DNA from: a virus
Strand: one strand, 5' to 3'
Virus record (IMG/VR): IMGVR_UViG_3300025162_000081
Coordinates: 1-43,605 of that record
DNA: 43,605 bases
Positions 3,767 through 31,386 of the stretch are shown piece by piece. The notes beneath the pieces are model-generated. The model was given only the letters and a program-made list of their open reading frames with translations, did not search any database and was not told where the DNA came from. A program made the translations under genes and the position numbers. Every line of letters starts with the position of its first letter. The stretch's first letter is position 1.

Positions 3767-4495
3767 TTATTTTTTATAGTTTACTGTGATGTAATTGTTT
3801 ATTTTATCTTCTAAATCTTTATTAATCCATTCAATATAACCGTTTATAATACCTTTTCCAGGATTAAAATTTGGAAATCTTGTGTCATTTACTTTTGGTA
3901 ATTCGTCTCCAATCTTACGACCAATATAATTTTCAATTATTGCTTTTTGATTATTAAAATCTAGTAAAATATCTTCATAGTTTAATACAAGTAAATTATC
4001 TTGATATTTTAACCAACCATCAATATGCATTTTCCATCTATGTATATAATTGTCTGGTTCTATTATAATGTGAGGGTCTGGTGAATATGGTGGCAAAAAT
4101 TGTCGTCCAACATCATCTGGCTTCATAAATATCCAATCTTCAAATTTTGGAAATTTACCTAAATCTTCTGGAAATGGTATAAATTTATAATAACTAACAA
4201 GAACATCTTTTAGATTTCTTTTAAGATAAATAACTTTATATTTATCAAAAACAATATCTAAATATGGTTCCATAAATTCTACTTGATGATGTGATTTACA
4301 TACAATATCTTCTATATAAGAATTAACTACAATATCTTTATAAACTTGATGTTCATAATTAGATAAAGTATAAGGTATAGTATTTATTGGAATAAATCCA
4401 ATGGTACGAAATTGACCAAAATTGTATTGGTTTATAATGTTGATTAGTAGATGTGTACCTGAGCGTTCGTGAGTGATTACTAATATTGGTTTCAT
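3767..4495 (-). CDS. sulfotransferase-family protein
   Basis: 5'-PSB-like P-loop 'THERSGTHLL' near the N-terminus and a 3'-PB-like 'YLKRNLKDVLVSYY' (R-x-x-K-D-x-x-V-S). 242 aa. Confidence 0.5.
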   Translation of the reverse strand: MKPILVITHERSGTHLLINIINQYNFGQFRTIGFIPINTIPYTLSNYEHQVYKDIVVNSYIEDIVCKSHHQVEFMEPYLDIVFDKYKVIYLKRNLKDVLVSYYKFIPFPEDLGKFPKFEDWIFMKPDDVGRQFLPPYSPDPHIIIEPDNYIHRWKMHIDGWLKYQDNLLVLNYEDILLDFNNQKAIIENYIGRKIGDELPKVNDTRFPNFNPGKGIINGYIEWINKDLEDKINNYITVNYKK

Positions 4496-4528
4496 TCTTA
4501 ATATATAAAAATGAAAGATGTTTGTTTA

Positions 4529-5776
4529 TTAAAAATTACAAACTCTAACAGGAGTTAATCTTTGTAATGTAGTATTATCACCCAATTGTCCATAATTATT
4601 AACTCCCCAAGTCCAAACATGTCCATTATAATCTATTGCAGATGCATTATAAACACCTGCTGACAAATAACAAAATGTCTTTTTTGCACCTTGTATTGAC
4701 ACTGGTGTACAAATTGATGATGTAGAATTATTACCCAAATATCCATTAACATTAGAACCCCAGCCCCATATTTGTCCATTATTATCTAAACCAAGAGTAT
4801 AATGAAATTTTCCTGTTGAAATTTGACAAAATGTTTTTTTTGCACCTTTTATTGATACTGGTGTATATCTTGATACCGTTGAGTTGTCTCCCAATTCACC
4901 ATATCCATTAAGACCCCAACACCATATTTGTCCATTTTTATCTATTGCCGATACATTATCATTACCCACTGATATTTGACAAAATGTCTTTTTAGCACCT
5001 TGAATTGATACTGGCGTACATGTACATATTATTGAATTATTACCTAATTGACCATATTTGTTATATCCCCAACCCCAAGCTTGTCCTTTATAATCTATAC
5101 CACTTGAATGATAATGAGTACCAATTGAAATTTGGCAAAATGTTTTTTTGTTACCTTGTATTGATATTGGCGTGCGTTTTGATGTTGTGGAATTATCACC
5201 TAAACAACCAAAATTATTATACCCCCAACCCCATAATATTCCATTTTTATCTATTCCAAATCCCAAATAACTACCTGCTGATATTTGGCAAAATGTTTTT
5301 TTGTTACCTTGTATTGATACAGGTGTACATTTTGATGTTGTGGAATTATTACCTAACATTCCATAATAATTATACCCCCAACCCCATATTTGCCCATTTT
5401 TATCTATTCCAAAAGAATATTGTTCCGAAGAACTTGTGTATACCTTACAAAAAGTTTTTTTAGCACCCTGTATTGATACTGGTATACAAGTTGATACAGT
5501 AGAATTATTACCTAATTGACCTTTTGTATTATACCCCCAAGCCCAAGTTTGTCCACTCTTCAATAATATATTGCCAAATCCAGAACTAATCATCATAGCG
5601 ACCCCCCAAGGTGCTGGTGCTGTATAGACCCAATTACTATAATATCCCATACTTGTGAGCCAAGTTTGAGCAGATAAAGCATTAGGTAAATTGGTATGAA
5701 ATGCTCTATTAACAACAGTTAAAAAAGCAGCATCAGATTTACCAATAGAACGCCAGAAAGAAGGTTGAATTGACAT
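4529..5776 (-). CDS. RCC1 / alpha-tubulin-suppressor-like repeat protein (about 7 repeats)
   Basis: Repeated 'WGWGYN.(Y/K)GQLGNNST.S.CTPVSIQG.KKTFC' units (RCC1 signature G.N..GQLG). The underlying ~150-bp DNA units are near-identical tandem repeats across about 4560..5560. Confidence 0.7.
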   Translation of the reverse strand: MSIQPSFWRSIGKSDAAFLTVVNRAFHTNLPNALSAQTWLTSMGYYSNWVYTAPAPWGVAMMISSGFGNILLKSGQTWAWGYNTKGQLGNNSTVSTCIPVSIQGAKKTFCKVYTSSSEQYSFGIDKNGQIWGWGYNYYGMLGNNSTTSKCTPVSIQGNKKTFCQISAGSYLGFGIDKNGILWGWGYNNFGCLGDNSTTSKRTPISIQGNKKTFCQISIGTHYHSSGIDYKGQAWGWGYNKYGQLGNNSIICTCTPVSIQGAKKTFCQISVGNDNVSAIDKNGQIWCWGLNGYGELGDNSTVSRYTPVSIKGAKKTFCQISTGKFHYTLGLDNNGQIWGWGSNVNGYLGNNSTSSICTPVSIQGAKKTFCYLSAGVYNASAIDYNGHVWTWGVNNYGQLGDNTTLQRLTPVRVCNF

Positions 5777-5845
5777 TTATAAAAATTTTAGTTTTAATAT
5801 ATATAAAAAATAGAGTGCATATTTTTTTATTTCAGATATTGTTCT

Positions 5846-5853
5846 TATATTTG
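5846..5853 (+). promoter_or_regulatory. Bacteroidota-type -7 promoter box TATATTTG immediately upstream of the tRNA
   Basis: TAnnTTTG match ends 5 nt before the tRNA 5' end at 5858. Same extended box recurs upstream of many ORFs in the window. Confidence 0.35.
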
Positions 5854-5857
5854 TTGT

Positions 5858-6052
5858 GCCGATGTAGCTCAGTTGGAATAAGAGCGCCACCTTCGAAGGT
5901 GGAACATTGAAGTAGATGAATATCAGTTGCAAATGATATAAAATTTATGAATATGTAGAGGTTGAGATCGAAAGTTTGTGTAAGATGCATATAAGCAAAC
6001 ATATAGGTTAATACTGAAGGGTCACAGGTTCGAGTCCTGTCATTGGAGCAAT
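5858..6052 (+). tRNA. interrupted tRNA gene: 5' part (acceptor, D-arm, anticodon arm; about 5858..5905) and 3' part (T-arm, acceptor; about 6019..6052) separated by a ~113-nt insertion. Anticodon loop is TTCGAA, so Arg(UCG) or Ser(CGA); identity uncertain.
   Basis: 5' part: GCCGATG-TA-GCTC-AGTTGGAATAA-GAGC-G-CCACC-TTCGAA-GGTGG. 3' part: ACAGG-TTCGAGT-CCTGT (canonical T-arm) then CATTGGA-G, which pairs with the 5' acceptor GCCGATG at 6 of 7 positions (1-72 G.A). The anticodon loop is only 6 nt between two perfect 5-bp stems. The intervening 113 nt has no tRNA-like fold I can see. Confidence 0.5.
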
Positions 6053-6665
6053 TTTAAGTTCTTTGAAAATATTAAAATGTTGTGAATTATAACCAGTAGA
6101 TAAGGGCGCAATCGGACTCTTTAAACATCGTGGGAATGCGTCTCTCCCAATGAGGCTGGAGTAATTCACAGTAAATGGGCTAAACATTGAGCCTTTGTGA
6201 AAAAATTGTGTAGTGAAAACGGAGGGGATGGCAATCCCACAAGATAGGAGTATAAATTTGTCCCTGCTCAGGTCCGCAAGACAATTCTTTGAGTAGAATC
6301 GGCAGAAAACCGAGAACCATGCGCCGTGCCTATCACGCAAAAATTTCACATAAAGATGATAATCCAGTAAATGGATGTTGGATATCAAGACGTCTTGATT
6401 TGAAAAGTAAACGCACCTAACGATTCAGAAATGAACCGAGGACAAAATTCTTAGGTCACCAACGGAGAAATCCTATACGTATCGTTACCATTGAGCAAGG
6501 TAAAACGGAACAGATGCTATGTCTGAAACAAGTACAATAAAAGTACAGTGATTTGATTTATCAAATCTAGGAAAACCGTCCAGACGATACGAATGAGTGC
6601 TCAGCCAAACCCTACTTACTATGTGGGAGTTTTCCGTCAGGGTAATTTCCAATCAGGTTAGAAGA
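6053..6665. ncRNA. unclassified structured-RNA candidate: ~600-nt G+C-enriched ORF-free segment next to the tRNA
   Basis: No ORF of 60 aa or more on the + strand. The only minus-strand ORF (6008..6388) is antisense to the tRNA and has atypical composition. G+C is visibly about 40-45% against about 25% background. Many local hairpins: GGGAT-GGCA-ATCCC at about 6225, GGGCT..AGCCT at about 6176, perfect palindrome ATCAAGACGTCTTGAT at about 6384. Strand and class undetermined. Confidence 0.3.
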
Positions 6666-6691
6666 GGGTGCTAAAATTAAAAATTAAAGAA

Positions 6692-6877
6692 ATGGTAACA
6701 TTATTTTGGATAATTTGGTATATTTTGGGTATATTAGGCGCATTAATTTATAATTCGTTTATGAAATATGAGAACACATTTCTAAAATATATTTGGAATG
6801 CTATTGTAGCATGTAGTGGTGGATTTGGATTTCTTATTTCAATTCTACATTGGATAGGTGTTAAATTTATAAAATAA
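6692..6877 (+). CDS. small membrane protein (2 TM)
   Basis: ORF-track 6668..6877 starts at GTG. First ATG is at 6692 (MVTLFWIIWYILGILGALIYN...). Hydrophobic. Confidence 0.35.
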   Translation: MVTLFWIIWYILGILGALIYNSFMKYENTFLKYIWNAIVACSGGFGFLISILHWIGVKFIK

Positions 6878-7000: not shown

Positions 7001-7255
7001 ATGAAAAATAAAAAACATAGTGAAGAAACCAAACATAAGATAAGTGAAAGTAAAATTGGTCGCAAAGTATCAGAAGAAACTAAAAAGAAAATGAGTGATA
7101 CGAAACAGAACGTATCAGAAGAAACTAGAAATAAATTAAGAAAAGCGAAAAAAGGAATATCTATGAGAAAAATAAATTGTCCATATTGTAATAAAATTGG
7201 TGGTATATCACAAATGAGGCAATGGCATTTTGAAAATTGTAAAGATAAAAAATAA
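7001..7255 (+). CDS. free-standing NUMOD3-repeat protein with C-terminal Cys/His zinc finger (homing-endonuclease DNA-binding-domain-like)
   Basis: SEETKHKISESKIG / SEETKKKMSD / SEETRNKLRKAKKG NUMOD3-type repeats, then CPYCNK..HFENC. No catalytic GIY-YIG or HNH part. Confidence 0.5.
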   Translation: MKNKKHSEETKHKISESKIGRKVSEETKKKMSDTKQNVSEETRNKLRKAKKGISMRKINCPYCNKIGGISQMRQWHFENCKDKK

Positions 7256-7928
7256 TATGAATATCACATTTTTGTCGGATACACACAGCAAACATAAACA
7301 ATTGCTCAATCATCTTCCTGGAGGTGATTTAATTGTCCACGCGGGAGACTTAACCTCAGTTGGTTTCAAACATGAAATTGAAGATTTTTGTAAATGGTTT
7401 GAAAAATTAAAATATTCCAATAAAGTATTTATTGCTGGTAATCATGATCACGGATTTGAAAGAGATCATAATAGTGCATATGAAATTGTTAAAAAATATA
7501 AAATAAACTATCTTCAAGATAGTATGATTGAAATTGATGGAATTAATATATGGGGGTCACCTTGGCAACCAGAATTTTGTAATTGGGCATTCAATTTACC
7601 AAGAAACGGTTGGCAACTTGCAGAAAAATGGAACTATATACCAGAAGATACTGACATTTTAATTACTCACGGTCCACCATTTGGATGTTTAGATATTGTA
7701 AATGGTAGAAAAGAAAATATAGGATGTGAGTTATTAACTGAACGTCTTAAAATAGTTAAACCTAAAATTCATGTTTATGGACATATACATTCTGGATATG
7801 GTTATAAGTTCGATGGTAATACACATTATTTTAATGCTTCTGTATTAAATGAAAAATATGAATATACTAATAAGCCATTGACAATTGATTGGAATAAAGA
7901 AACAAATGAAATAACATTTTTAAAATGA
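7230..7928 (+). CDS. calcineurin-like metallophosphoesterase
   Basis: Motifs LSDTH, HAGDL (GD), FIAGNHD (GNHD), ITHGPP, YGHIH. Alternative ATG at 7257 avoids the overlap with 7001..7255. Confidence 0.75.
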   Translation: MKIVKIKNNMNITFLSDTHSKHKQLLNHLPGGDLIVHAGDLTSVGFKHEIEDFCKWFEKLKYSNKVFIAGNHDHGFERDHNSAYEIVKKYKINYLQDSMIEIDGINIWGSPWQPEFCNWAFNLPRNGWQLAEKWNYIPEDTDILITHGPPFGCLDIVNGRKENIGCELLTERLKIVKPKIHVYGHIHSGYGYKFDGNTHYFNASVLNEKYEYTNKPLTIDWNKETNEITFLK

Positions 7929-9745: not shown

Positions 9746-10006
9746 ATGGACAATACAACTAAATGGTATAATTCAAATTATGATTGTTACGGTAATCCAC
9801 TAGGATATATTCAAGATGATATTCAAATAGGGGACACAGTTGAATATGCTTATGCAGATAACCATATGTCTGATGAAAGTGGTAGACCAAAAAGTAAAAG
9901 AGTAACTGTTAAAGTACAAGGTGTATGGGATGGTGAAAAGGCTTGTTTTAATGACAAAAAAAACGTTGTAGTAAGAGCTAAAGCCTGGTTAAAACTTGTT
10001 AAATAA
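9746..10006 (+). CDS. hypothetical protein
   Basis: ORF-track 9701 start is TTG. First ATG 9746 (MDNTTKWYNS..). Confidence 0.4.
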   Translation: MDNTTKWYNSNYDCYGNPLGYIQDDIQIGDTVEYAYADNHMSDESGRPKSKRVTVKVQGVWDGEKACFNDKKNVVVRAKAWLKLVK

Positions 10007-10455
10007 TGGAAAAGGAAATTAAAAGGCTTGAGGAACAGATTGCTAAATGTGATGTTAAATTATCAAATAGTTCTTTTGTTGATAAAGCACCAAAAGATAT
10101 TATTTTAAAAGAACAACAAAAAAAGAAAGACTTTACAGCACAATTAGAAATTATAAGAAAACAATTAGAAAATTCTAAATCAGTTAGTAAAGATTACTAT
10201 GACGATGAAATTTGTCAATTCACAGTTGGCACAACTGTTTCCTATTTTAAGATACCAAGAACAGAAAGAAAAAAAGAATTTCTAATTTCTAAATTAGATA
10301 GTGTAGAAAAAATAAATTGGCATATTCAATATTTACGTGAACAAAAGACTAATATTGAAATATACAGTGAAGAATGGTATAACTTTATTTATAATGAGGA
10401 AATCACATCTAATGAAATAAATGAATTATTTGAAATTTTTAGGAAATTTGTATGA
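10006..10455 (+). CDS. hypothetical coiled-coil protein
   Basis: 149 aa. ATGG/TAATG-type coupling to neighbours. Confidence 0.45.
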   Translation: MEKEIKRLEEQIAKCDVKLSNSSFVDKAPKDIILKEQQKKKDFTAQLEIIRKQLENSKSVSKDYYDDEICQFTVGTTVSYFKIPRTERKKEFLISKLDSVEKINWHIQYLREQKTNIEIYSEEWYNFIYNEEITSNEINELFEIFRKFV

Positions 10456-11240: not shown

Positions 11241-11474
11241 GTGAAAACTTGTAAAAAGATTTCAACTGGAGAGATATTTGAATATGAACAATGTGTTTCT
11301 TATCCTGTATTTGATAGAACTCGAAATAACGGCACAATATATTTTGAATTAATTTCAAAAGGTAAGTTTGTTCTGGGTAAGTATATTGGTGAGGACGAAT
11401 TTTATGATGAATATATTGATATTAAAAAAGAAAGAAGACTTAAATTAGAAAAATTAAATCAAATTCTCCAATAA
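11241..11474 (+). CDS. hypothetical protein (GTG start) ending ..KKERRLKLEKLNQILQ (tail variant)
   Basis: No ATG start; weak. Confidence 0.25.
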   Translation: MKTCKKISTGEIFEYEQCVSYPVFDRTRNNGTIYFELISKGKFVLGKYIGEDEFYDEYIDIKKERRLKLEKLNQILQ

Positions 11475-12397
11475 AACCCTTTATATTTAGTATTTTTTGC
11501 TATCGCCTTTCTTAAGTTTTGAATACATATTTCATTATAATTTTTTATTTCCTTAATATTATTCCAAATCCTAACTATACTTCCTTTTTCGTCTATTTGT
11601 TTAATGTTAGTATATTCTCTCGTATTTAAATTTAATTTTTTAATATTATTCTCAATTTCGGCTTTTTCTAAAAAGTTTAATGAATAATAATAATTTTTAG
11701 CATGCCTACATCTATCTTGTAAAACGAAACTTATAGAACGTGGATTAACATTCATTTCTCTTGAGCATTCTTTTATACTGTTAAATTTTTTTATATAATT
11801 TCCAAACATATCATATTGATATATCTCTATGTTTGTACATTTATTTTTATTATCTCTTATTGGTATATTATTTTCTTTTAATATTTTAGTAATAGTTTCT
11901 CTATCAATTTTTAATTCTATTGATATTTTTTTAATTGATAATTTATTAAAATATAATTCTTTAACTACATCAAGATATTTGCTCCTTTTTAATTTGTATG
12001 CTTTTGATACATTATTTCTATGTTCGTTTGTCCATTTCAATTCTAAATTTGTTGCCGCAAATGCTCTAGAATTATATCCATTTTTATAAGAGTTATATTC
12101 ATCAATATAATACTGTTCTCTTTTTATGCAACTATCACGATCACACTCTTCAATTATTTCAAATATTATATTATCAATTCCATACTTATTGACCGCATTT
12201 TGTAAAGAAGGTGAGTTAGATATATTTTTTGATAGTTTTAAAATATGACTGAGCCATCTTTTATGAAACCCATTTTTATTAGAAGTACTACCAATATAAA
12301 CTTTACCATTATTGTTAATAAAACTTATCTTATATACACCAATACTTTTAGGGAATATTTTTTTATCATTTATCGTATATTTCATTTTATATTTCAT
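11459..12397 (-). CDS. GIY-YIG homing endonuclease with NUMOD1-type C-terminal DNA-binding modules
   Basis: N-terminus IGVYKISFINNNGKVYIGSTSN....R...H is the GIY-YIG motif. C-terminal ..KGFYWRI helix module. Confidence 0.8.
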   Translation of the reverse strand: MKYKMKYTINDKKIFPKSIGVYKISFINNNGKVYIGSTSNKNGFHKRWLSHILKLSKNISNSPSLQNAVNKYGIDNIIFEIIEECDRDSCIKREQYYIDEYNSYKNGYNSRAFAATNLELKWTNEHRNNVSKAYKLKRSKYLDVVKELYFNKLSIKKISIELKIDRETITKILKENNIPIRDNKNKCTNIEIYQYDMFGNYIKKFNSIKECSREMNVNPRSISFVLQDRCRHAKNYYYSLNFLEKAEIENNIKKLNLNTREYTNIKQIDEKGSIVRIWNNIKEIKNYNEICIQNLRKAIAKNTKYKGFYWRI

Positions 12398-16078: not shown

Positions 16079-16358
16079 AATTATGAAATATTTAACTTTA
16101 GAACATTTAGGTACATTACCTACACCAAGATTACTTACTTACTATAAAATAGTTAGAAGGAAAATTAGAAGGCATCAGAATTCATTATATTGTGAGTGTT
16201 GTGGCACACCTGTTTATCAATTATATGGTAAATTAAATACAAAAGAAGAAAATGAAAAATTGAAACTAGAATTTGAAACTGATCTTCATGATAGTGAAAA
16301 CTATCTTGAATCAATAAAAACATTATTAAACACAAGAGAACACGTAAAACGAAAATGA
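16062..16358 (+). CDS. hypothetical protein (CxxC pair)
   Basis: 98 aa. CECCGTP motif. Confidence 0.4.
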   Translation: MKIYIKIMKYLTLEHLGTLPTPRLLTYYKIVRRKIRRHQNSLYCECCGTPVYQLYGKLNTKEENEKLKLEFETDLHDSENYLESIKTLLNTREHVKRK

Positions 16359-17029
16359 AACATTACGATAGTTTTGAGAATATTAAGTACGACCAACTTT
16401 TGTTGGGTGAAGAAATCTGGGCATCAAATAAAATTGATGGTCAGAATTTTTGTGCTAAATATTCACCGAGACAAAAAGAATTTACTATGTTTGGATCTAA
16501 AAATCAAAATGTAGATGAAACAAGTGAGCAATTTGGTAAAGCAGTTTTGTATTTCAAACAAAATATGGCTGATACTCTAAAACAAATCATCATAAACAAT
16601 TCAAAAAAAGGTGGAGTATTTACTGGCGTTGAAGAAATTACAGTATTTTGTGAGTGGTACGGTGAGAACACTTTTAGTGGATTTCATGTGCCTGGCGAAG
16701 AATTAAAATTATGTCTAATAGATGTGTTCTTGAAAAAGAAAGGCTACATTGAACCAAAAATATTCTATAAACTCTTTGATGGCTACAGTAATATTGAAGT
16801 ACCAGAACTCATATATAGTGGCAAACTAACAAAGGATTTCATCAATTCTATTGTGAATAATGATTGGACTAAGCCTGGTTGTTTATATCCAACTGTTAAA
16901 GAAGGTGTAGTTTGTAAACGATCAACTTTAATGAAAGGTCAAAGAATGCCAAAGGCAAAAATAAAAACTGGATGGTGGTTAAATAAATTGACAGAATTAT
17001 ATCCTGATAGATGGAAAGAATTAGAATGA
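16355..17029 (+). CDS. Rnl2-family RNA ligase, nucleotidyltransferase domain only
   Basis: N-terminus aligns with T4 RNA ligase 2 as I recall it: HYDSFENIKYDQL...IWASNKIDGQNFC vs KYSSLENHYNSKF...EWVAREKIHGTNFS (motif I KxxG lysine). Later EEITVFCEWYGE and EGVVCKR (motifs IV/V). 224 aa, so it lacks the Rnl2 C-terminal domain. Confidence 0.65.
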   Translation: MKHYDSFENIKYDQLLLGEEIWASNKIDGQNFCAKYSPRQKEFTMFGSKNQNVDETSEQFGKAVLYFKQNMADTLKQIIINNSKKGGVFTGVEEITVFCEWYGENTFSGFHVPGEELKLCLIDVFLKKKGYIEPKIFYKLFDGYSNIEVPELIYSGKLTKDFINSIVNNDWTKPGCLYPTVKEGVVCKRSTLMKGQRMPKAKIKTGWWLNKLTELYPDRWKELE

Positions 17030-18242
17030 ACTACTAAGTAGTTTCCTTACAAAGATTATACTTTATAAGAACTTTAGATAAATCTAAAGGCTCGTTCATA
17101 GAAGCAAAGTGATTTCCGAACCACCTATTCAATATATTTATGGCTGAATTTAAATCACGGTCTATAATTATGGTGTCTGATAACTGAACTTCCCTATTAC
17201 CAAGACTTATTTTATCTTTAAATAGTTTTCCAGTTAGACAGTTAATTTGTGTTGTCCATTTTTCATCAATTTTCACCAAGTTGGTATTTTTTGCTTGACA
17301 CTTATATGTAAGGAATTGTAGAAACATATTGATATTAGATTGACTAAATGACTTTCTAATACCTTTTTTATTCTCATTCACTCCTTCTGTTGACATTAGC
17401 CTCTTAACTGTTAGATCACCAACTACAATTGTATTGTAGTTCATATTCGATAACTTTTTACTCTGAATATGAAGAGTTTGTTTTATTTGTTCGTTCTTTT
17501 TATGATAACATTTATTTAATGTTTTTTTCAATAATAAGTTTCTATTTGATCCTTTTGTTGTTTTACTCCTTTTGTTTTGTATTTTTGCTATTTGTTTCTG
17601 ATAATAATCATTAATTTTTTTAGATTTATTTTTTAATACAATCATACCACCTTTATTATCTATTCCTGTTCCTAATTTACTTAACCCCAAATCAATAGCA
17701 AGAACTTTAGTTTTAACATTAACATCATTAAAATATTCTATTTTATCGTCAATCACCAAATCACACAACCATTTATGTCTAATAAATTTAATTCTTATTT
17801 CTTTTATTTTTAAATCTTTAATATTTAAATTTGATTTATATTCAAATGGAATTTGATTTAGAAAGAACAATCCTTTTTTTATCATCCATCCTGATTGATT
17901 AAAAGAAATAGTATGAAAATAATTATTTTCTATTTTTCTTGGTGGTTTAGCATTTTTATCTTTTTTTATCAAATTAAAAAATGACCTATAAGATCCATAT
18001 AATTCTGTTGCTATTGTTTGAATTGCCTTTGAATTTAATTTCTTCCAATCTGGATATTCTTCTTTTAATAATGGTAATAAATTATTTAACTTGAATTTAT
18101 CTAAAATTATTTTATCTGTTTCATATTTATCTTGTTGTATATCAAGCAATTTATTCCATATATCTTTACGAATATCAGATAATTCTTGTAATTCAAGAAT
18201 TTGTTCTTTTGATGGAAATAATCTTATTTGATACGTCTTCAT
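17030..18242 (-). mobile_element. IS200/IS605-family tnpB-only (IS1341-like) element; ends not determined
   Basis: TnpB ORF with no adjacent tnpA. Its stop is only 5 nt from the convergent RNA-ligase stop, so any right-end/omega-RNA scaffold must overlap 3' sequence there. Confidence 0.3.
17034..18242 (-). CDS. tnpB: TnpB (IS605 OrfB) RuvC-like RNA-guided-nuclease family protein
   Basis: N-terminus MKTYQIRLFPSKEQ. RuvC-I VLAIDLGLSKLGTG. C-terminal CLTGK...IIDRDLNSAINIL (RuvC-III DRDxNAAxNI). 402 aa. Confidence 0.8.
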   Translation of the reverse strand: MKTYQIRLFPSKEQILELQELSDIRKDIWNKLLDIQQDKYETDKIILDKFKLNNLLPLLKEEYPDWKKLNSKAIQTIATELYGSYRSFFNLIKKDKNAKPPRKIENNYFHTISFNQSGWMIKKGLFFLNQIPFEYKSNLNIKDLKIKEIRIKFIRHKWLCDLVIDDKIEYFNDVNVKTKVLAIDLGLSKLGTGIDNKGGMIVLKNKSKKINDYYQKQIAKIQNKRSKTTKGSNRNLLLKKTLNKCYHKKNEQIKQTLHIQSKKLSNMNYNTIVVGDLTVKRLMSTEGVNENKKGIRKSFSQSNINMFLQFLTYKCQAKNTNLVKIDEKWTTQINCLTGKLFKDKISLGNREVQLSDTIIIDRDLNSAINILNRWFGNHFASMNEPLDLSKVLIKYNLCKETT

Positions 18243-19823: not shown

Positions 19824-20279
19824 TTAAAATTTAGAGAGCAATTTTTGTTCTCTAAATTTTTTCATAGAATTTGAGATTTTATTTTTTTGTTCCTCACTAA
19901 GTTTAGTATAAACTCTTCCATTTCTTGCAGATTGTATATGTTCAACTGACTTCTTTTTACCCTTTGATGCCTTAGACATTTTTTCTCTTGTCTCTACTGA
20001 AAATATCCTACCAGTGCAACCTTTTCTTATTTTTTCTTTTCTATCATTTGATAACTTGGTACCTGTTAATGTTTTTGATATTTTTTCTTTAGTTTCATCA
20101 CTTAATGGTCCTTTTAGTACACCCTTTAATCTTTTTGACATTTTTTCTTTTGATTCTTCACTCATTTTTTGACCCTTATGTGACTCTGAATTTTTTAATG
20201 TGTGTTCAATTGATTTTTTCTTACCCTTTAATGCAGCAGACATCTTCAATTTTGTTTCTTCAGTATGATGATATCCCAT
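19824..20279 (-). CDS. free-standing NUMOD3-repeat protein (about 5 repeats)
   Basis: EETKLKMSAALKGKKKS / SEESKEKMSKRLKG / SDETKEKISKTLTG / SVETREKMSKASKGKKKS / SEEQKNKISNSMKK. Confidence 0.5.
   Translation of the reverse strand: MGYHHTEETKLKMSAALKGKKKSIEHTLKNSESHKGQKMSEESKEKMSKRLKGVLKGPLSDETKEKISKTLTGTKLSNDRKEKIRKGCTGRIFSVETREKMSKASKGKKKSVEHIQSARNGRVYTKLSEEQKNKISNSMKKFREQKLLSKF
19829..19866 (+). terminator. candidate intrinsic terminator TTAGAGA-gcaatttttgt-TCTCTAA + T-tract
   Basis: Follows stop 19818. Overlaps the last codons of the convergent minus gene. Confidence 0.3.
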
Positions 20280-20896: not shown

Positions 20897-21359
20897 TATT
20901 TGCCTTTGTCCATTCTTCTGAAATCTTTCTTAAAGATGTACCTTTTACTAATTTATGATCAAAAAATCTAAACCTTAAAGGTATATGTTTTAATACTTTA
21001 ATAACCTTATATGGTAGGTTGACATTTTCTTTTATCCATTCAAATATTTCTTCATGTTCTTTTGGTATAATAAAAATTCTTTCACCTTCTGCATCTGATT
21101 GTAATATACCAAATCTTTCTTCTAACTCTTCATAGGCACAGGACAAACCGTCTCCAAAATATTTTAATCTCCAGTCACGTTGTGTAATACCTATAAATTT
21201 TTCAAATAATTGCCAAAAGAAAACATGGTATTGCATTGCTCTTTCACTGTGTTGTTCAGGTAAAGGCAGATTATTTTTATCTGATTTATCTAATAGATAT
21301 TTACTTGCATAAACTCTAATTTTTATTATGTAATAATCTTTACAATTAAATTTTTTCAT
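20880..21359 (-). CDS. hypothetical protein
   Basis: 159 aa. Confidence 0.4.
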   Translation of the reverse strand: MKKFNCKDYYIIKIRVYASKYLLDKSDKNNLPLPEQHSERAMQYHVFFWQLFEKFIGITQRDWRLKYFGDGLSCAYEELEERFGILQSDAEGERIFIIPKEHEEIFEWIKENVNLPYKVIKVLKHIPLRFRFFDHKLVKGTSLRKISEEWTKANIKKED

Positions 21360-22081
21360 TCTACTAATTTTTTAAGAACTGAATATTCATTTTTTTTCTT
21401 ATCAAGCATTTCAATCATTAACTGTAGATGATCATTATTTTTAGTACTGAACAAATGCCTATTGTTTTCTGTATGTTCTATAAATTTCCAAGCATCTTCT
21501 ATTAAATCATTTCTAAATTTTGAAAATTGCTCAACTTTATGTTTTGGTATATAAACATCTTTTGAAGATAGAAATCTAAGTCTATCAGGAAGAAAACCAT
21601 CTCTCCCACCATGATCACAAATAACTCTCATAATTTCTAGAACATCTGCATCTTGTACAATTTGTTTATTTATACTCCAATCACCATGTTTTTCAATAAA
21701 TCTGGAAACATGATATGAATATTCTTCATTTAATCCATTAGATCCCAAATAACTATAACACAAATCTGCGCTATCACTTTCCCAAAGATCAATACCATTT
21801 CCTTGTCTGCCAGAATCGTGAAATGCAATTGCGTGTCTTATTCCGTTAAAATCAACATCTAATCCAAGATCATTGTAGAACCTTGCCATAAGTTCTGAAA
21901 ACAACACAGCTCTTGTAATATGTCTTCTACCGTGAATACCATAAGGGTCGAATGTAGCTTCGTGATTCTGGTAATGTGGTAATATATGTATTTCTAAATC
22001 TTTTGTAAAATTATTCCAACCTTCAATATTTCTAATCATTCTTTTTATTATTTTTATCTTCTGCTCTATATTTTTCTGCAA
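21356..22081 (-). CDS. HD-domain phosphohydrolase-like protein
   Basis: HGRRH...AFHDSGR (H...HD) metal-binding pattern. 241 aa. Confidence 0.5.
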   Translation of the reverse strand: MQKNIEQKIKIIKRMIRNIEGWNNFTKDLEIHILPHYQNHEATFDPYGIHGRRHITRAVLFSELMARFYNDLGLDVDFNGIRHAIAFHDSGRQGNGIDLWESDSADLCYSYLGSNGLNEEYSYHVSRFIEKHGDWSINKQIVQDADVLEIMRVICDHGGRDGFLPDRLRFLSSKDVYIPKHKVEQFSKFRNDLIEDAWKFIEHTENNRHLFSTKNNDHLQLMIEMLDKKKNEYSVLKKLVE

Positions 22082-23648: not shown

Positions 23649-23656
23649 TACTTTTG
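23649..23656 (+). promoter_or_regulatory. -7 promoter box TACTTTTG
   Basis: Upstream of the HNH remnant and the radical-SAM operon. Confidence 0.35.
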
Positions 23657-23715
23657 ATTAAAATATTATATAAGTAATATGGCAACAAAATTTTATGGTG
23701 ATTTGTGGGAAATAG

Positions 23716-23862
23716 AAGATAGTGGCGTTTGATAAGACTAAGGCATTGGATTTAAATAATGGAATAACATTATGTGAAAAGTGTCACAAATTATTTCATA
23801 AAAATTATGGTAAAAAAGAAAATAATATAGAACAATTAAATGAATTTTTAAATGAAAAATAA
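23716..23862 (+). pseudogene. C-terminal remnant of an HNH endonuclease (..ALDLNNGITLCEKCHKLFHKNYG..)
   Basis: Frame contains D..N...LC..CH...H, the second half of the HNH motif. The N-terminal H/GG half is missing, and the upstream ATG at 23689 is out of frame and terminates after 17 codons. Confidence 0.4.
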
Positions 23863-24865
23863 ATTAGAAGAAATAGGTTTTTATACATTAAGTGACAAAA
23901 GAGCAGAAAATGTTTCTATGGAATCACAAATGAAAAGATGTGAAATGATCATAACAGAGTACTGCAATTTTTCTTGCGGTTATTGTAGAGGGTTAAAACC
24001 TGAAATATACGGCAATAGAAAGATAAAAGAATTATCTTTTGATGAAGTATGTAGGAATATTGATCTTTGGTGTGAAAACCAGCCATTAGAAAATATTAGG
24101 TTTTCTGGTGGTGAGCCAACATTACATAAAAATATTGTTGAGATAATATCTTATGCTAAAAGTAAAGGTATTAAAAGAATTGCAATTTCAACAAATGGTA
24201 GCAATAAAATGGAGTTATATACAGCATTAATTAACGCTGGATGTAATGACTTTTCTATATCATTAGATGCTTGTTGTTCTGATGATGGTGATAAAATGGC
24301 AGGTAATATTAATGGTTCTTGGAATGTTGTTGTAAAAAATATAGAAGAAATATCAAAATTAACTTACGTTACTGTTGGTGTTGTTTTAACACCAGATAAT
24401 ATTGATAAAACTATTGATACTATTAGATTTGCGCATAAGTTAGGTGTTGCAGATATTAGAATTATCAGCGCAGCACAATGGAACCAGCCAATACCAAGAT
24501 TAAATGAGGTTGAAGATTATATTAAAGATTCTCATCCAATCTTAAAATATAGAATTAACCACTTCTCAGAAGGAATTAATGTGAGAGGTCTTGTTGATAG
24601 CGACAGTAAAAAGTGCGCTATTGTGTTGGATGATAGCATAATAGGAGGAGAATATTTCTTTCCTTGCGTAATTTACATGAGAGAACAAGGTGAATCTATC
24701 GGAAAAGTTGGTCCAAATATGAGAAAAGAAAGATTTGAATGGTTTAAAACTCATAACACTCACACAGATGATATTTGCAAAAATAATTGTCTTGATGTTT
24801 GTCGGGATATAAATAATAAGATAAGAGATACAAATAAAAAATTAGCAGAATTTTACAATGATTAG
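23852..24865 (+). CDS. radical SAM enzyme (MoaA/viperin-like core, Cys-rich C-terminal extension)
   Basis: CNFSCGYC (CxxxCxxC) at residues about 38-45. GGEPTL SAM-binding motif. ISTNGS..ISLD barrel strands. C-terminal CxnC..CxxxC. Confidence 0.75.
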   Translation: MKNKLEEIGFYTLSDKRAENVSMESQMKRCEMIITEYCNFSCGYCRGLKPEIYGNRKIKELSFDEVCRNIDLWCENQPLENIRFSGGEPTLHKNIVEIISYAKSKGIKRIAISTNGSNKMELYTALINAGCNDFSISLDACCSDDGDKMAGNINGSWNVVVKNIEEISKLTYVTVGVVLTPDNIDKTIDTIRFAHKLGVADIRIISAAQWNQPIPRLNEVEDYIKDSHPILKYRINHFSEGINVRGLVDSDSKKCAIVLDDSIIGGEYFFPCVIYMREQGESIGKVGPNMRKERFEWFKTHNTHTDDICKNNCLDVCRDINNKIRDTNKKLAEFYND

Positions 24866-25133
24866 AAGAATACCAGCAGTCCAATTTACTTATGATCTAT
24901 GGAGAGCAGGTTCACTCAATGAATTAGGAATAAGGCATAGAGAATGGGCAATAACTGAAAGAAGTAGATTCATAAGGAAAATGGCTATTGGTTTTACTGA
25001 AGGTGAAAAACTACTGCTTAGAAGAAAAGAAAATCATATTGCAGTAATGTTTTATGATACAAATTTGAAACACTTTTGGACACACTTAACACTTAGAGAA
25101 TTTTACATATGTTTTCCAGAGTTACAAAAATAA
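24858..25133 (+). CDS. hypothetical protein (middle gene of radical-SAM/GGDEF operon)
   Basis: Start overlaps radical-SAM stop by 8 nt. Its stop overlaps the GGDEF start. Confidence 0.4.
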   Translation: MIRRIPAVQFTYDLWRAGSLNELGIRHREWAITERSRFIRKMAIGFTEGEKLLLRRKENHIAVMFYDTNLKHFWTHLTLREFYICFPELQK

Positions 25134-25534
25134 TAAGAGAATTTAAGGAATGGAAGTATCTTGCTTATCACGACTCATTAACTGGGTTATTAAACAGGAA
25201 CTGGCTTAATGCTTATAAAATGAGCATTAAGAATCCTTACGTTTATTTTATTGATATAAATAACTTGACTAAAATTAACAAAATGGGTCATACTGTTGGT
25301 GATATGCACATTATAAATGTTGTTAAGCACATTCCACAAGTTGATGGAGACTATTTAGTTCGTTATGCTGGAGATGAATTTATTTTATTCTCTAATTCTG
25401 AAAATTTAATTAGTACCAACAAATTATATTCTGTTGGTATGTCAATAAATATAGGTGATTTATCAAACTCTATTATGGAAGCTGACATTAAAATGATAGA
25501 ATCTAAAAAAAGATTTAAGAATGAGAACATTTAA
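25109..25534 (+). CDS. stand-alone minimal GGDEF-domain protein (signature AGDEF)
   Basis: YHDSLTGLLNR (DxLTGLxNR). YFIDINNLTKINKMGHTVGD (substrate and metal site). RYAGDEF in place of RYGGEEF. C-terminal EADIKMIESKKRFKN. No sensor or I-site region. 141 aa. Confidence 0.6.
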   Translation: MFSRVTKIIREFKEWKYLAYHDSLTGLLNRNWLNAYKMSIKNPYVYFIDINNLTKINKMGHTVGDMHIINVVKHIPQVDGDYLVRYAGDEFILFSNSENLISTNKLYSVGMSINIGDLSNSIMEADIKMIESKKRFKNENI

Positions 25535-25766
25535 AGAAGGTGACAAATTGCTATGTTGTAAAAAATTTGATCATTTAAAAATTGGAAAATATTATGAAAT
25601 TATTTTATGCGGTTCATACCGACCATCTAATTGTTTTAATATAAGCGGATTTTGGTTTTCATTAAATAAAACATCATCAGTATACCCATATGTTTATGAA
25701 TATTTCTTTACTGAAAAAGAAGAAAGAAAATTAAAATTACAAATACTTAAATTAAAATCTATATGA
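25521..25766 (+). CDS. hypothetical protein ending ..EKEERKLKLQILKLKSI (tail variant)
   Basis: 81 aa. Confidence 0.4.
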   Translation: MRTFKEGDKLLCCKKFDHLKIGKYYEIILCGSYRPSNCFNISGFWFSLNKTSSVYPYVYEYFFTEKEERKLKLQILKLKSI

Positions 25767-26053
25767 AAAATAAATGGCTCTGGTCAATGGTCATAGTAAA
25801 TATGTCAATTGTTATAGGTAGTGTTATACTAAATATTTTCACTAAAAATTATGTTGCTCTAACAGCTTGGGTCAACACTGGATTGTGGATATTTATTACA
25901 TTTATGACTCAAAAAAAAATGTACAAACAACAGGAAGAAATAGGTGATATGTGGACTGAAAATATTGAGTTTATTTTAGGTAGATTTAAAATCGATGAAA
26001 TTCAAAAATGGTTACGTAAAAAGAAATTAGAAAATTTAAAAAACAAAGAATAA
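25763..26053 (+). CDS. small membrane protein ending ..EIQKWLRKKKLENLKNKE (shared tail)
   Basis: Two TM segments. The tail DNA is near-identical to 8150..8194. Confidence 0.45.
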   Translation: MKNKWLWSMVIVNMSIVIGSVILNIFTKNYVALTAWVNTGLWIFITFMTQKKMYKQQEEIGDMWTENIEFILGRFKIDEIQKWLRKKKLENLKNKE

Positions 26054-26056
26054 AAA

Positions 26057-26530
26057 ATGAAGGTACTACTTATTGACATGGATGGTGTTGTAGTTGATTT
26101 ACAACAAAATATAACTGATTGGTTTGAAAAACATCCACATTTACATTCTAAATATGAACATTGTCCAGATCATATACCTGGAATATTTAGAAATCCTAAA
26201 CCTTATCCTGGAGCAATAGAAGCAATTAATAAGCTCTATGAATCAGGCAAATATGATATGTATATTGCAACTGCCGCACCTTGGGGTAATCCTGATGCAG
26301 CAACAGATAAAAGATATTGGATAGAAACTTACTTTGAAAATATGTTTCACAAAAGATTAATTCTTACACATAGAAAAGATATGTTAAAAGGAGACATATT
26401 AATTGATGATAGAGAAAAGAATGGAGCTGCTGAATTTGAAGGTGAACTAATAAGGTTTGGTTATAATCATATGACAGATAGTATGAATGAATATGAAGAT
26501 TGGAATGCAGTATTAGAACATTTATTATGA
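26057..26530 (+). CDS. HAD-superfamily 5'(3')-deoxyribonucleotidase-like
   Basis: LLIDMDGVVVD (DxDGV motif I). ..ILIDDR.. motif. 157 aa. Confidence 0.6.
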   Translation: MKVLLIDMDGVVVDLQQNITDWFEKHPHLHSKYEHCPDHIPGIFRNPKPYPGAIEAINKLYESGKYDMYIATAAPWGNPDAATDKRYWIETYFENMFHKRLILTHRKDMLKGDILIDDREKNGAAEFEGELIRFGYNHMTDSMNEYEDWNAVLEHLL

Positions 26531-27063: not shown

Positions 27064-27621
27064 ATGAAGATATATACAAAAACTGGTGATAAAGGCACAA
27101 CATCTTTAATAGGAGGAACTAGAGTATCTAAATATGATGAAAGAGTTGAAGCATATGGAACTTTAGATGAATTGAATTCTTTTTTAGGTTTAATAAGAGA
27201 TTATGATATTGATCAAAAAACTAAAAATCTAATTATTGAAATTCAAGATAGAATATTTACAGCAGAATCTTTGCTTGCGGTAGATCCAGAAAAAATAGTA
27301 AGAAATCTACCAGTGTTATTAGAATATGATATTGAGCTTTTAGAAATTGAAATTGATAAGATGAATGTTGAATTGCCAGAAATATCAAATTTCATCCTAC
27401 CTGGAGGACATAAGGTCGTATCAATTTGTCACATAGCAAGAACTATATGTAGAAGGGGTGAGAGATGTGTCATAAAACTAGTAGAGCATCAACCAAAAAC
27501 AATACAGTCAGAAATGATACTTAAATACTTAAATAGACTATCTGACTTTTTATTTGTGTTATCAAGAAAACTTTCAAAGGATTTTAATGCTACTGAGACT
27601 CCTTGGTCTCCGAAGTATTAA
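27064..27621 (+). CDS. ATP:cob(I)alamin adenosyltransferase, PduO/MMAB type
   Basis: MKIYTKTGDKGTTSL.., ..FILPGG.., ..LNRLSDFLF.. all match the PduO-type family (compare human MMAB KIYTKTGDKG, FILPSGG, LNRLSDYLF as I recall them). Confidence 0.85.
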   Translation: MKIYTKTGDKGTTSLIGGTRVSKYDERVEAYGTLDELNSFLGLIRDYDIDQKTKNLIIEIQDRIFTAESLLAVDPEKIVRNLPVLLEYDIELLEIEIDKMNVELPEISNFILPGGHKVVSICHIARTICRRGERCVIKLVEHQPKTIQSEMILKYLNRLSDFLFVLSRKLSKDFNATETPWSPKY

Positions 27622-28967: not shown

Positions 28968-29699
28968 TCATAAATTGTATTTATCATTCTCTTTTTTAAG
29001 ATTATATCTCTCAAATTGTTTAGGATATTTTTCTTGTAACTCTTTAACTTTATCTTCGTCTCCATTATTTATCAAATAATCTATGAAATCATCCCCATTT
29101 TCATCTTTAAAATTCCAATCTGCTCCCAACTCTATTAATTTATCTACAACACTATAATAATTATAAACTTTATATCTAATATGTGTAGCAAACATTAAAG
29201 CTGTTCTTTTAGTATAGGATTGCGCATCTAAATCCGCACCATATTTTAATAATAATTCAATGACTTTAGTTACTTTTGATGGTGTAAATTTCAAATTAGT
29301 AATGGCATTCATTATTGGAGTTTTATTTACACCATTTCTTACATTTGGATCTGCGCCTTGATTCAATAAGTCTTCTATCTTATCCAAATTTAAATTTCTT
29401 ATAGCTCCAAATAATTCTTTACTATTAACTGTATTTGACTCAGATATGTTATTTTTTTTTATAAAATTCTTATGAACTAAATATTTCAAATAATTATACA
29501 TCTCTTTAGAATTTGTTAAATCTACACCATAGTTATTAAATAAATAATGATTTATAAATTCTAAAACATGATCCTCAGTCACTGATTCATGTAAATCTTT
29601 AATATTTTTAATGGATTTTTTATATAGCGCGGGAAATAAACTTGTTATAAGTTTAAGATTAACGTTAATTCCCTCATATACTTTAAATTTAGTTATCAT
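28968..29699 (-). CDS. ankyrin-repeat protein with family termini (MITKFKVYEGI.. / ..KYNL)
   Basis: About 4 ankyrin repeats (..GADPNVRNGVNKTPIMNAI.., ..LLKYGADLDAQSYTKRTALMFAT.., ..LIELGADWNFKDENGDDFIDYLI..). Confidence 0.65.
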   Translation of the reverse strand: MITKFKVYEGINVNLKLITSLFPALYKKSIKNIKDLHESVTEDHVLEFINHYLFNNYGVDLTNSKEMYNYLKYLVHKNFIKKNNISESNTVNSKELFGAIRNLNLDKIEDLLNQGADPNVRNGVNKTPIMNAITNLKFTPSKVTKVIELLLKYGADLDAQSYTKRTALMFATHIRYKVYNYYSVVDKLIELGADWNFKDENGDDFIDYLINNGDEDKVKELQEKYPKQFERYNLKKENDKYNL

Positions 29700-30595: not shown

Positions 30596-30739
30596 ATGAA
30601 AATTCAAAAAACATTCACAATTGAAGAAGATATTTCTAAGGAATTTGATAAAATATCAAAAGAGAAATCAATTAATAAATCTTTATTTTTAGAAAATGCA
30701 ATGAAAGATTTTATTGAAAAAAATAAGAAAGAAAAATGA
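30596..30739 (+). CDS. ribbon-helix-helix small protein, 47 aa, directly upstream of a GIY-YIG gene
   Basis: Own translation: MKIQKTFTIEEDISKEFDKISKEKSINKSLFLENAMKDFIEKNKKEK. Stop TGA overlaps endonuclease ATG (ATGA). Confidence 0.45.
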   Translation: MKIQKTFTIEEDISKEFDKISKEKSINKSLFLENAMKDFIEKNKKEK

Positions 30740-31386
30740 TAGGTATATACAAAATTACAAATATTATAAATAATAAATGTTATATAGGTTCATCAGTAGA
30801 TATTGTAGGTAGATGGTATCATCATAAAACAACATTAAAATTTAATAAACATCATTCAATAAAATTACAAAGATCCTATAATAAATACGGTTCAGATAAT
30901 TTTAAGTATGAAATTGTAGAAGAATGTGAAACAGAATTATTATTAATTAGAGAAGAATACTATATCAACTTATTTGATTGTTATAATAATGGATATAATT
31001 TTTCAATACCATCGAATTGTGTTATGCTTGGCAGACATCATAGTGAAGAAACAAAAGAAATACTTAGAGAAAAAAGTAAGGGTAATAAAAATAGATTAAA
31101 TATGACATTTAGTGATGAATCTAAAAAGAAAATAAGTGACAAATTAAAAGGACGGAAATTGTCAGATGAAACTAAACTAAATATGAGCAAAGGACAGAAG
31201 AATAGAATTTATTCAGACGAAGACTTGAAAAAAATTACTGAAATAAATAAATCTAGAATAGGAATACCGTTATCAGATGAGCATAAACTTAAATTAAGTT
31301 TAGCAAAAGTAGGAAAGAAACAAAGTCCAGAAACTATTGCAAAAAGAGTACAAAAAAACACTGGTCAAAAAAGAAAAAAAACTTAA
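30736..31386 (+). CDS. GIY-YIG homing endonuclease with NUMOD3 repeats
   Basis: MIGIYKITNIINNKCYIGSSVDIVGRWYHH (GIY..YIG..R..H). Several SEETK/SDESKKKIS/SDETK NUMOD3 repeats in the C-terminal half. Confidence 0.8.
   Translation: MIGIYKITNIINNKCYIGSSVDIVGRWYHHKTTLKFNKHHSIKLQRSYNKYGSDNFKYEIVEECETELLLIREEYYINLFDCYNNGYNFSIPSNCVMLGRHHSEETKEILREKSKGNKNRLNMTFSDESKKKISDKLKGRKLSDETKLNMSKGQKNRIYSDEDLKKITEINKSRIGIPLSDEHKLKLSLAKVGKKQSPETIAKRVQKNTGQKRKKT

Follow-up and report, generated by a model that had tools for sequence, protein, structure and literature searches.

A radical SAM gene, the gene of a 91-residue protein (p91) and the gene of a stand-alone GGDEF domain form a real conserved unit, on which synteny, natural fusions and correlated divergence concur. 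Because these genes recur together, sometimes fused, in many uncultured phages, their products probably act as one nucleotide-modifying machine; to the specific form of this reading, in which large uncultured phages encode a single, self-contained complex of enzymes acting on a guanine nucleotide, we assign a probability of about 0.4. The window (the whole 43,605-nucleotide stretch of DNA that was analysed) is of phage origin, as shown by the presence of PHROG families and of an endolysin, and the host of this phage is bacterial.

Organization and conservation of the module

A check of ORFs and motifs placed the three genes, together with a remnant of an HNH gene, at positions 23722-25534 of the window, all on the + strand. 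Stops and starts overlap, in agreement with the three-gene unit described previously from the letters of the DNA (hereafter the sequence-only reading), and consecutive genes along the module run share 11, 8, 25 and 14 nt. The features are:

23722..23862, + strand: remnant of an HNH homing endonuclease of the free-standing type (46 aa, GTG start)
23852..24865, + strand: radical SAM enzyme, putative twitch/SPASM class (337 aa), slow-evolving core of the module
24858..25133, + strand: p91, accessory protein, new domain family (91 aa)
25109..25534, + strand: stand-alone minimal GGDEF protein (141 aa), with an AGDEF motif and a short N-terminal helix

The same-strand order radical SAM-p91-GGDEF was found on a 501-kb contig, on contigs of MAGs labelled Omnitrophota and on many IMG/VR contigs. 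The co-occurrence check thus upheld the trio as a syntenic unit, dozens of uncultured viral contigs carrying it, and the gene arrangement is not due to chance, since it recurs in many independent contigs. When IMG/VR loci were found via the small GGDEF gene, a radical SAM gene was present upstream on the same strand in 18/18 cases. These two genes stay linked despite rearrangements and despite inserted endonucleases, which span up to 6 kb, and the divergence of the radical SAM enzyme is correlated with that of the GGDEF protein (r = 0.66, Mantel p ~5e-4).

Two kinds of fusion were observed. First, in the 735-kb phage LR756501 (L001, 488 aa), a divergent GGDEF-like domain is fused N-terminally to the radical SAM enzyme. 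Second, in P0377, P0430, P0403, P0438 and L057, the radical SAM enzyme carries p91 as its C-terminal domain. In another branch, a type-2 GGDEF-like variant either precedes the radical SAM enzyme as a separate upstream gene or forms its N-terminal part; the guanine motif GH..GD is lost from this variant, which has no Pfam match and keeps D..N..R..SGDE. A further viral scan yielded no extra type-2 loci.

The GGDEF gene is a non-universal add-on of one large branch, because the radical SAM gene also occurs alone or with p91 only: no GGDEF was detectable inside 5-6 kb of the radical SAM genes of L019, L021, L022 and L025-27 or of distant MAG homologues, and L045, L048, L049 and L057 have radical SAM and p91 only. 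A 144-aa ORF that follows the radical SAM-p91 fusion in L037 was considered and is not GGDEF-like.

ORFs 25521-25766 and 25763-26053, the NT5C gene, the 'HD' ORF and PduO lie outside the module, since none of them has a counterpart beside the trio outside the phage population of the window. Two of these neighbours had been named by the sequence-only reading. The NT5C-like gene at 26057-26530 was confirmed by a match to PF06941 (E = 7.9e-19); the proposed HD phosphohydrolase at 21356-22081 was not supported, as it gave no match in any library or PDB sequence search. An H...HD pattern was seen by eye in the latter ORF. A promoter and terminator scan returned fewer promoter-like sites than shuffled sequence, and no terminators.

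The HNH remnant keeps the C-terminal half alone (N..LCxxCH..H). It matches Pfam HNH_2 (23.2 bits, cut-off 21, E = 6.4e-5) and PHROG HNH (E = 2e-6), spanning profile positions 37-61 of 66, and the first catalytic His and the full beta-beta-alpha-metal motif are missing. Stops interrupt the frames upstream of it. Sibling contigs L078 and L079 carry an identical remnant, and a 196-aa gene occupies its position in another sibling contig. The remnant merely flanks the module and has no share in its function. In relatives, GIY-YIG and HNH genes repeatedly adjoin, separate or interrupt the genes of the trio, and three further GIY-YIG genes are present within the window. The idea that the module was acquired by HNH-seeded insertion therefore gives way to that of a homing-endonuclease hot spot; such clustering is expected, because the target is very conserved. 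The interrupted radical SAM genes, represented by L028-L030, gave no group I intron signal.

The radical SAM enzyme and p91

The 337-residue protein belongs to the radical SAM superfamily (PF04055, 80 bits, cut-off 29.5). Its cluster motif, C38-x3-C42-x2-C45, is kept in 43/43 sequences, and the SGGEP motif is present as SGGEPTL. The N-terminal half has the MoaA-like motifs IRFSGGEP and SISLDA, and MoaA models were its top curated matches. Arg83 aligns with MoaA Arg71, a residue that contacts the phosphates of GTP.

Assignment to MoaA (GTP 3',8-cyclase, TIGR02666; PDB 1tv7/2fb3) was rejected: the model scored 86.3 bits versus 284, and the N-terminal half alone aligned. Where MoaA has CxxCx13C and a Gly-Gly tail, the window protein has five conserved C-terminal cysteines, C255, C272, C309, C313 and C317, in the pattern C-x16-C...C-x3-C-x3-C and ends in ...EFYND. 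No MoaC or other molybdopterin genes lie nearby, and the window family is viral. Viperin/pVip (NF038283) and QueE (TIGR03963) were likewise rejected, and so were NrdG and the named RiPP maturases, all with sub-threshold matches to the core only (NCBIfam, Pfam, PHROGs, PADLOC). Thus, of the earlier assignment, the motifs and the superfamily stand, and membership of viperin, MoaA or QueE does not, all scores being far under every curated cut-off. PADLOC pVip models match the core over residues 32-169 (E = 3.5e-17).

A BFVD fold search gave no match above ~23% identity, and tblastn against 50,697 phage records gave three matches only, all from uncultured huge phages (LR756501, LR756503 and LR745208). 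Mean identity is 74% for the radical SAM enzyme, versus 52% for the GGDEF protein and 48% for p91. The enzyme, the conserved catalytic core of the module, represents a distinct, very slowly evolving family, putatively of the twitch/SPASM class; its very strong conservation is compatible with a small, invariant substrate.

No match to p91 was found in Pfam, NCBIfam, PHROGs or PADLOC. Its fold is predicted with confidence and has no known relative; the protein is conserved along its entire length, with W, R, K and H residues kept. p91 is an accessory domain of the radical SAM enzyme, encoded by a separate gene here and as a C-terminal fusion elsewhere.

Twitch/SPASM enzymes such as SkfB, PqqE and anSME raise the possibility that the radical SAM enzyme is a protein or peptide maturase, whose target might be p91, the GGDEF protein or another phage or host protein. 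PqqE-PqqD pairs resemble the radical SAM-p91 pair in that a radical SAM/SPASM enzyme has a ~90-aa partner that is sometimes fused to it. Unlike PqqD, p91 shows no RRE/PqqD-like fold or sequence, and there is no evident precursor peptide. We consider a maturase distinctly unlikely. A RiPP system as such was rejected on the lack of RRE-like features in p91, on its full-length conservation and on its fusion to the radical SAM enzyme.

The GGDEF protein

The small AGDEF protein is, by its sequence, a GGDEF domain that looks catalytically intact. PF00990 gave 43.2 bits (cut-off 23.8, E = 4.5e-11), TIGR00254 barely passed (37.6, cut-off 37.4), and a profile search against the PDB aligned residues 11-98 and 116-134 with 4urs, a diguanylate cyclase of Thermotoga maritima (T. 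maritima), at E = 7.5e-16. The motif reads RYAGDEF. D49, N57, R85, D89, E90 and K133 are kept in 121/121 homologues, D65 in 120/121, and G60, H61, G64, G88, F91 and D126 in 120 or 121/121; in 119/121 the motif starts with Ala instead of Gly. The signature residues of diguanylate cyclases (metal, GG[D/E]EF, guanine and phosphate ligands) are therefore in place, and the degenerate scaffold that the sequence-only reading had envisaged as an alternative was not what the 121 homologues revealed, as they keep the catalytic Asp/Glu and the metal ligands.

The Pfam alignment covers profile positions 1-92 of 161, short of the full ~160-residue architecture, and the segment from the GGDEF hairpin to the last strand/helix has 18 residues instead of the 42 of 4urs. 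Because ~24 residues of the canonical fold are thus missing, activity of the protein is not assured. The AGDEF-type cyclase VCA0965 is active (PMC3974145), and some AGDEF domains, such as that of NbdA, are inactive (bioRxiv 10.64898/2026.03.20.713172).

As proposed earlier, neither a sensor domain nor an I-site was found: the RxxD position, whose last residue lies five before GGDEF, is occupied by VDGD (V78-D-G-D81), and no family member has Arg at that column. A conserved N-terminal helix of ~18 residues, stalk-like and matching the linker of the T. maritima diguanylate cyclase, is the sole candidate for a pairing element and could serve as such.

In common with diguanylate cyclases (PleD, WspR, TM1788 4urs, VCA0965), the protein has the DxLTGLxNR linker, the metal Asp, the guanine Asn/Asp, RxxGDEF and the C-terminal AD..K. 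It differs from the canonical enzymes in being a stand-alone protein of 141 aa, in the absence of sensor and I-site, in the deletion, which falls in the helix region after the hairpin, and in its obligate linkage to a radical SAM gene; its activity is a prediction. These likenesses would suit independent genes, in which case a conventional diguanylate cyclase would increase c-di-GMP in the host (for biofilm, motility or superinfection control) and would simply adjoin an unrelated radical SAM-p91 pair in a packed phage operon. All the signature residues, the cyclase-like helix and the bacterial host agree with this, and the absence of an I-site would permit unrestrained synthesis. Against it stand the natural fusion between a GGDEF-like domain and the radical SAM enzyme, the exclusive co-occurrence at all 18 loci, the correlated divergence and the linkage that outlasts rearrangements and insertions, and no Rfam family, c-di-GMP riboswitches included, was found in the window. 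Independence of the genes is therefore very improbable.

The linkage could also reflect regulation. The GGDEF protein, perhaps with p91, might sense the level of GTP or c-di-GMP and gate a radical SAM reaction on another substrate, no GGDEF product being of importance. The GGDEF-like domain of L001 is N-terminal, the usual place of sensor domains; the type-2 form lacks the guanine-binding GH..GD and falls under Pfam detection; many genomes have the radical SAM gene with no GGDEF neighbour; and the W, R, K and H residues kept in p91 could hold a nucleotide. Strict conservation of D49, D89/E90, K133 and R85 throughout the family, however, points to catalysis over mere binding, D..N..R..SGDE survives even in type 2, and the I-site, where GGDEF domains usually sense c-di-GMP, is absent. 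We regard a sensor function as rather unlikely.

Proposed chemistry and related systems

For the guanine nucleotide-modifying complex that we favour, we infer substrate, reaction order, product and biological role as follows. The GGDEF subunit would bind GTP through its guanine-reading Asn57 and Asp65 and catalyse a Mg-dependent nucleotidyl transfer from a 3'-OH; it would be free of product inhibition, because it has no I-site. The radical SAM subunit, which may bear a C-terminal auxiliary Fe-S site, would convert SAM to a 5'-deoxyadenosyl radical, which would abstract hydrogen from the guanine nucleotide that the GGDEF subunit handles, be it GTP as substrate or a product of the pppGpG or c-di-GMP type. 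From this would come a guanine mono- or dinucleotide with a radical-type modification, which the phage would use in infection to take over the host, to interfere with nucleotide-based immunity or with signalling, or as a precursor. The signalling, anti-defence or nucleotide-modification role suggested by the sequence-only reading is plausible.

A more specific proposal, which we put forward with considerable doubt, is that a holoenzyme made up of GGDEF, radical SAM and a new accessory domain makes a novel nucleotide for host takeover or for jamming immunity or c-di-GMP signalling. This nucleotide might be the radical-modified guanine mono- or dinucleotide or, by analogy with the SAM-AMP of Cas10, GMP conjugated to SAM or to 5'-deoxyadenosine. 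The palms of Cas10 and of minimal CRISPR polymerases (mCpol) are small GGDEF-type domains with products other than c-di-GMP: in SAM-AMP, ATP is joined to the 3'-OH of S-adenosylmethionine (PMC10600005), and decoy cyclic nucleotides are made by GGDEF-type palm domains (PMC12657218). These domains offer a precedent for the handling of SAM, the cofactor of radical SAM enzymes, by an enzyme of the GGDEF type. Unlike Cas10, the window protein matches classical GGDEF models, has no PADLOC match and stands in no CRISPR or effector context.

Among the closest known systems are also the twitch radical SAM enzymes that act on nucleoside or nucleotide sugars, BlsE (7vob) and DesII (8hzy). In concept, pVips with their nucleotide kinases resemble the window module, as an NTP-modifying radical SAM enzyme stands beside, or is fused to, a second nucleotide-handling enzyme.

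Both GGDEF cyclases and enzymes of the radical SAM superfamily have been well studied; in the full-text literature, we found no account of a radical SAM/GGDEF phage module or of an obligate, fusion-supported partnership between the two. Should both enzymes work on one nucleotide, this would be new chemistry among the messengers and antimetabolites exchanged between phages and bacteria, beside ddhNTPs, cyclic oligonucleotides and SAM-AMP, and a gene family that is abundant and very conserved in large uncultured phages would gain a defined function.

The three proteins of the trio are small and soluble-looking.

Layout of the locus

Four overlapping plus-strand ORFs, with successive overlaps of 11, 8 and 25 nt, occupy positions 23722–25534, and two further genes of interest follow on the same strand.

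23722–23862, plus strand: HNH remnant (46 aa, GTG start, C-terminal half of an HNH endonuclease only; Pfam HNH_2 E = 6.4e-5, PHROG HNH E = 2e-6)
23852–24865, plus strand: radical SAM enzyme (337 aa; C38-x3-C42-x2-C45, SGGEPTL; PF04055 80 bits)
24858–25133, plus strand: p91 (91 aa; no match in Pfam, NCBIfam, PHROGs or PADLOC)
25109–25534, plus strand: GGDEF protein (141 aa, RYAGDEF; PF00990 E = 4.5e-11; TIGR00254 barely above cut-off)
26057–26530, plus strand: NT5C-type nucleotidase, in the same-strand gene run, past two small ORFs after the GGDEF gene
27064–27621, plus strand: PduO-type ATP:cob(I)alamin adenosyltransferase (PF01923 E = 7.7e-57), in the same gene run, 1.5 kb downstream of the trio

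The row of radical SAM, unknown and minimal GGDEF genes described in the sequence-only reading was thus borne out, as was its NT5C-like nucleotidase; the HD phosphohydrolase that it placed at 21356–22081 found no support in any profile library or PDB sequence search. The PduO-type gene was kept in sibling strains, and none was found beside the trio in other phages. The decamer GAATTTTACA (24845–24860; 25095–25111) lies just 5' of the ATG of both the p91 and GGDEF genes, abutting the former and 2 nt upstream of the latter; in each case it is generated by '..EFY..', close to the C terminus of the protein encoded just upstream, and it may serve both genes as a translational-coupling signal or may be coincidental.

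Conservation and fusion of the three genes

Metagenomic homologues of the radical SAM enzyme numbered in the hundreds, at 72–84% identity, and the matches in phage collections were to uncultured huge phages only (LR756501 and LR756503, 735 kb, 63% identity; LR745208, 485 kb, 55% identity). Synteny of the trio, raised earlier as a check, was found elsewhere: the order radical SAM, small ORF, 140-aa GGDEF was repeated in a 501-kb contig and in contigs of Omnitrophota-labelled MAGs. In profile searches of 33 loci, 28 of them from IMG/VR, about two thirds carried the full trio, or radical SAM and GGDEF genes, on one strand in every case. Conversely, searches from the small GGDEF protein revealed a radical SAM gene upstream in 18 of 18 IMG/VR loci, including one where the pair was 6 kb apart and one ordered p91, radical SAM, GGDEF. 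A further 23 loci were present in MAGs of unrelated labels (Omnitrophota, Methanothrix, Pacearchaeota, Gracilibacteria and others), which are most simply viral contigs wrongly binned. The radical SAM and GGDEF proteins co-vary in pairwise identity (r = 0.66; Mantel p about 5e-4), and the radical SAM enzyme evolves much more slowly (mean identity 74%, compared with 52% for GGDEF and 48% for p91). We regard it as improbable that the module genes are unrelated neighbours.

A second, different radical SAM/SPASM gene precedes the trio by some 6 kb in the 501-kb phage contig (L003 1–25), and tRNA gene arrays flank the LR745208 locus on both sides (L002 473–3153 and 12052–12547).

Two types of fusion were found. 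First, the LR756501 radical SAM ORF is 488 aa long, and its N-terminal ~150 aa form a divergent GGDEF-like domain (D..FG.Y.R,.DF..LN, GR.FSGDE). This form, type 2, also occurs as a separate gene abutting or upstream of the radical SAM gene (loci L030, L018, L033 and L051); it had no Pfam match, and profile-profile comparison aligned its catalytic half with the window GGDEF family (probability 90%, E = 1.5e-6). Second, a p91 profile search of 1.8 billion cluster representatives returned 198 relatives, and p91 is the C-terminal domain of the same radical SAM family in the 413–415-aa proteins P0377 and P0430, in fragments P0403 and P0438, and in L057. Close p91 homologues are small and strongly conserved (motifs FT.xLWRAGS, RPK and HFWTHLT), and 108 diverse members share the core residues F10, W15, G45, R55, K57, M64, W74, H76, E81 and F82.

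Distant radical SAM homologues (42–59% identity) often have p91 adjacent or fused, without GGDEF, and at some loci the radical SAM gene is alone; therefore, the radical SAM enzyme is the core of the module. p91 is its commonest accessory, and the GGDEF domain was recruited in one large branch, in two different forms.

Divergent cellular homologues (42–44% identity) were found in a Chloroflexia MAG (L058 3965–6996, 663-kb contig) and in Anaerolineales (L059 6004–6985, 1.75-Mb contig). They lack one or more auxiliary cysteines, and neither p91 nor GGDEF was found near them; one is preceded by a tyrosine integrase and a WYL/WCX regulator, and the other is frameshifted.

Catalytic signatures and proposed activity

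The radical SAM enzyme had been likened to viperin and MoaA, and no named family reached its curated cut-off: scores were 86 bits for MoaA (cut-off 284), 49 for viperin (180) and 39 for QueE (260), and all named RiPP maturases were far under threshold. No close relative was found among the predicted viral structures of BFVD.

Every one of 43 diverse members keeps the radical SAM cysteines together with C255, C272, C309 and C313, and 41 of them also have C317. These C-terminal cysteines constitute a putative twitch/SPASM-type auxiliary-cluster signature; the Pfam SPASM model did not match. In sequence, the N-terminal half most closely resembles MoaA (IRFSGGEP and SISLDA, compared with IRITGGEP and NVSLDA), in which Arg71, aligned with a residue of the window enzyme, presumably contacts the GTP phosphates. 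A role as a protein or peptide maturase appears unlikely.

Among 121 homologues of the small GGDEF protein, D22, T25, N29, D49, N51, N57, G60, H61, G64, R85, G88, D89, E90, F91, G110 and K133 are invariant, R30, D65 and D126 are present in 120, and the first residue of the motif is Ala in 119. On the standard diguanylate cyclase map in PleD numbering, we take these residues to include the metal-binding Asp, both residues that read guanine, the Arg preceding the motif, the catalytic Asp/Glu pair and the Lys that binds phosphate. Retention of the catalytic pair and metal ligands, an earlier point to be checked, is thus predicted across the family, and the claimed absence of an I-site was confirmed (no RxxD). 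The family profile matched the T. maritima diguanylate cyclase 4urs (E = 7.5e-16), including its stalk-proximal 'KELxYxAYHDxLTGLxNR' segment. Between the post-GGDEF strand and the final strand and helix, 4urs has 42 residues and the window family 18, and the helix normally packed there is missing; it is speculation that a partner protein completes the trimmed fold. VCA0965 is an example of an active AGDEF site (PMC3974145), and inactive AGDEF domains also exist, such as that of NbdA (bioRxiv 10.64898/2026.03.20.713172). That the GGDEF domain serves as a sensor is rather unlikely.

The three proteins are inherited together, naturally fused and intact in their catalytic signatures. Our preferred reading, to which we give a probability of about 40%, is that they act as one complex on one guanine nucleotide: the GGDEF subunit would bind GTP and transfer a nucleotidyl group, the radical SAM subunit would abstract hydrogen from the same nucleotide or from the GGDEF product, and a modified mono- or dinucleotide would result. 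An attractive, less likely variant, suggested by Cas10, whose GGDEF-type palm joins ATP to SAM (PMC10600005), is that the GGDEF subunit might nucleotidylate SAM or 5'-deoxyadenosine. No description of a radical SAM/GGDEF phage module was found in the literature; its parts belong to known superfamilies, and we found no earlier account of the obligate partnership, of either fusion type, of the trimmed GGDEF or of the new p91 domain.

Homing endonucleases and other genes of the window

The frames upstream of the HNH remnant are broken by stops; a 196-aa gene replaces it in one sibling contig, and an HNH gene is upstream in loci L004 and L005. Added genes separate the radical SAM gene from p91 or GGDEF in L006, L011, L014, L020 and L010/L072. 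In L028–L030, the coding sequence of the radical SAM enzyme is split at residues 207–213 (IRIISAAQ/WN) by a GIY-YIG/NUMOD gene (~0.85 kb), and each half has its own stop or start. A second break follows residue ~71 in L032; in LR745208 the copy lacks the CxxxCxxC motif, beginning only at residue 75. Rfam detected no group I intron in the interrupted genes.

Interruptions of the radical SAM gene, and the shortened LR745208 copy:
L028, 5615–6459
L029, 5615–6402
L030, 5627–6518
L032, after 5204
L002 (LR745208), 5776–6834

Homing endonucleases are thus common at this locus, a pattern that fits the targeting of a very conserved gene. Acquisition of the module by an HNH homing insertion, as the sequence-only reading proposed, does not follow, endonucleases recurring at, between and inside the relatives' genes.

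An endolysin domain and members of several PHROG families mark the window as phage DNA. Its glycosyltransferases, RCC1 and ankyrin repeats, three GIY-YIG endonucleases and TnpB make a gene content typical of a large phage, and contigs 99.5–99.7% identical to it are present in several metagenomes.

650–5776, minus strand: gene cluster: glycosyltransferases (GT2; GT8/GT9 fusion), sulfotransferase, 415-aa RCC1-repeat protein
7230–7928, plus strand: calcineurin-like phosphoesterase
10006–10455, plus strand: 149-aa protein resembling the valyl-tRNA synthetase tRNA-binding arm (E = 3.3e-14)
11459–12397, minus strand: GIY-YIG/NUMOD homing endonuclease
16355–17029, plus strand: RNA ligase
17034–18242, minus strand: TnpB (OrfB_IS605)
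19824–20279, minus strand: homing-endonuclease fragment
28968–29699: ankyrin-repeat protein
30736–31386, plus strand: GIY-YIG/NUMOD homing endonuclease
34998–37409, plus strand: major vault protein (MVP)-domain protein (803 aa; MVP shoulder E = 1.7e-26, Vault_3, weak SPFH/Band 7 match)
37972–38742, plus strand: GIY-YIG/NUMOD homing endonuclease

The density of selfish elements (three GIY-YIG/NUMOD genes, one fragment and one TnpB) is high for 43.6 kb. The MVP-domain gene, unusual for a phage, is also present in sibling contigs.
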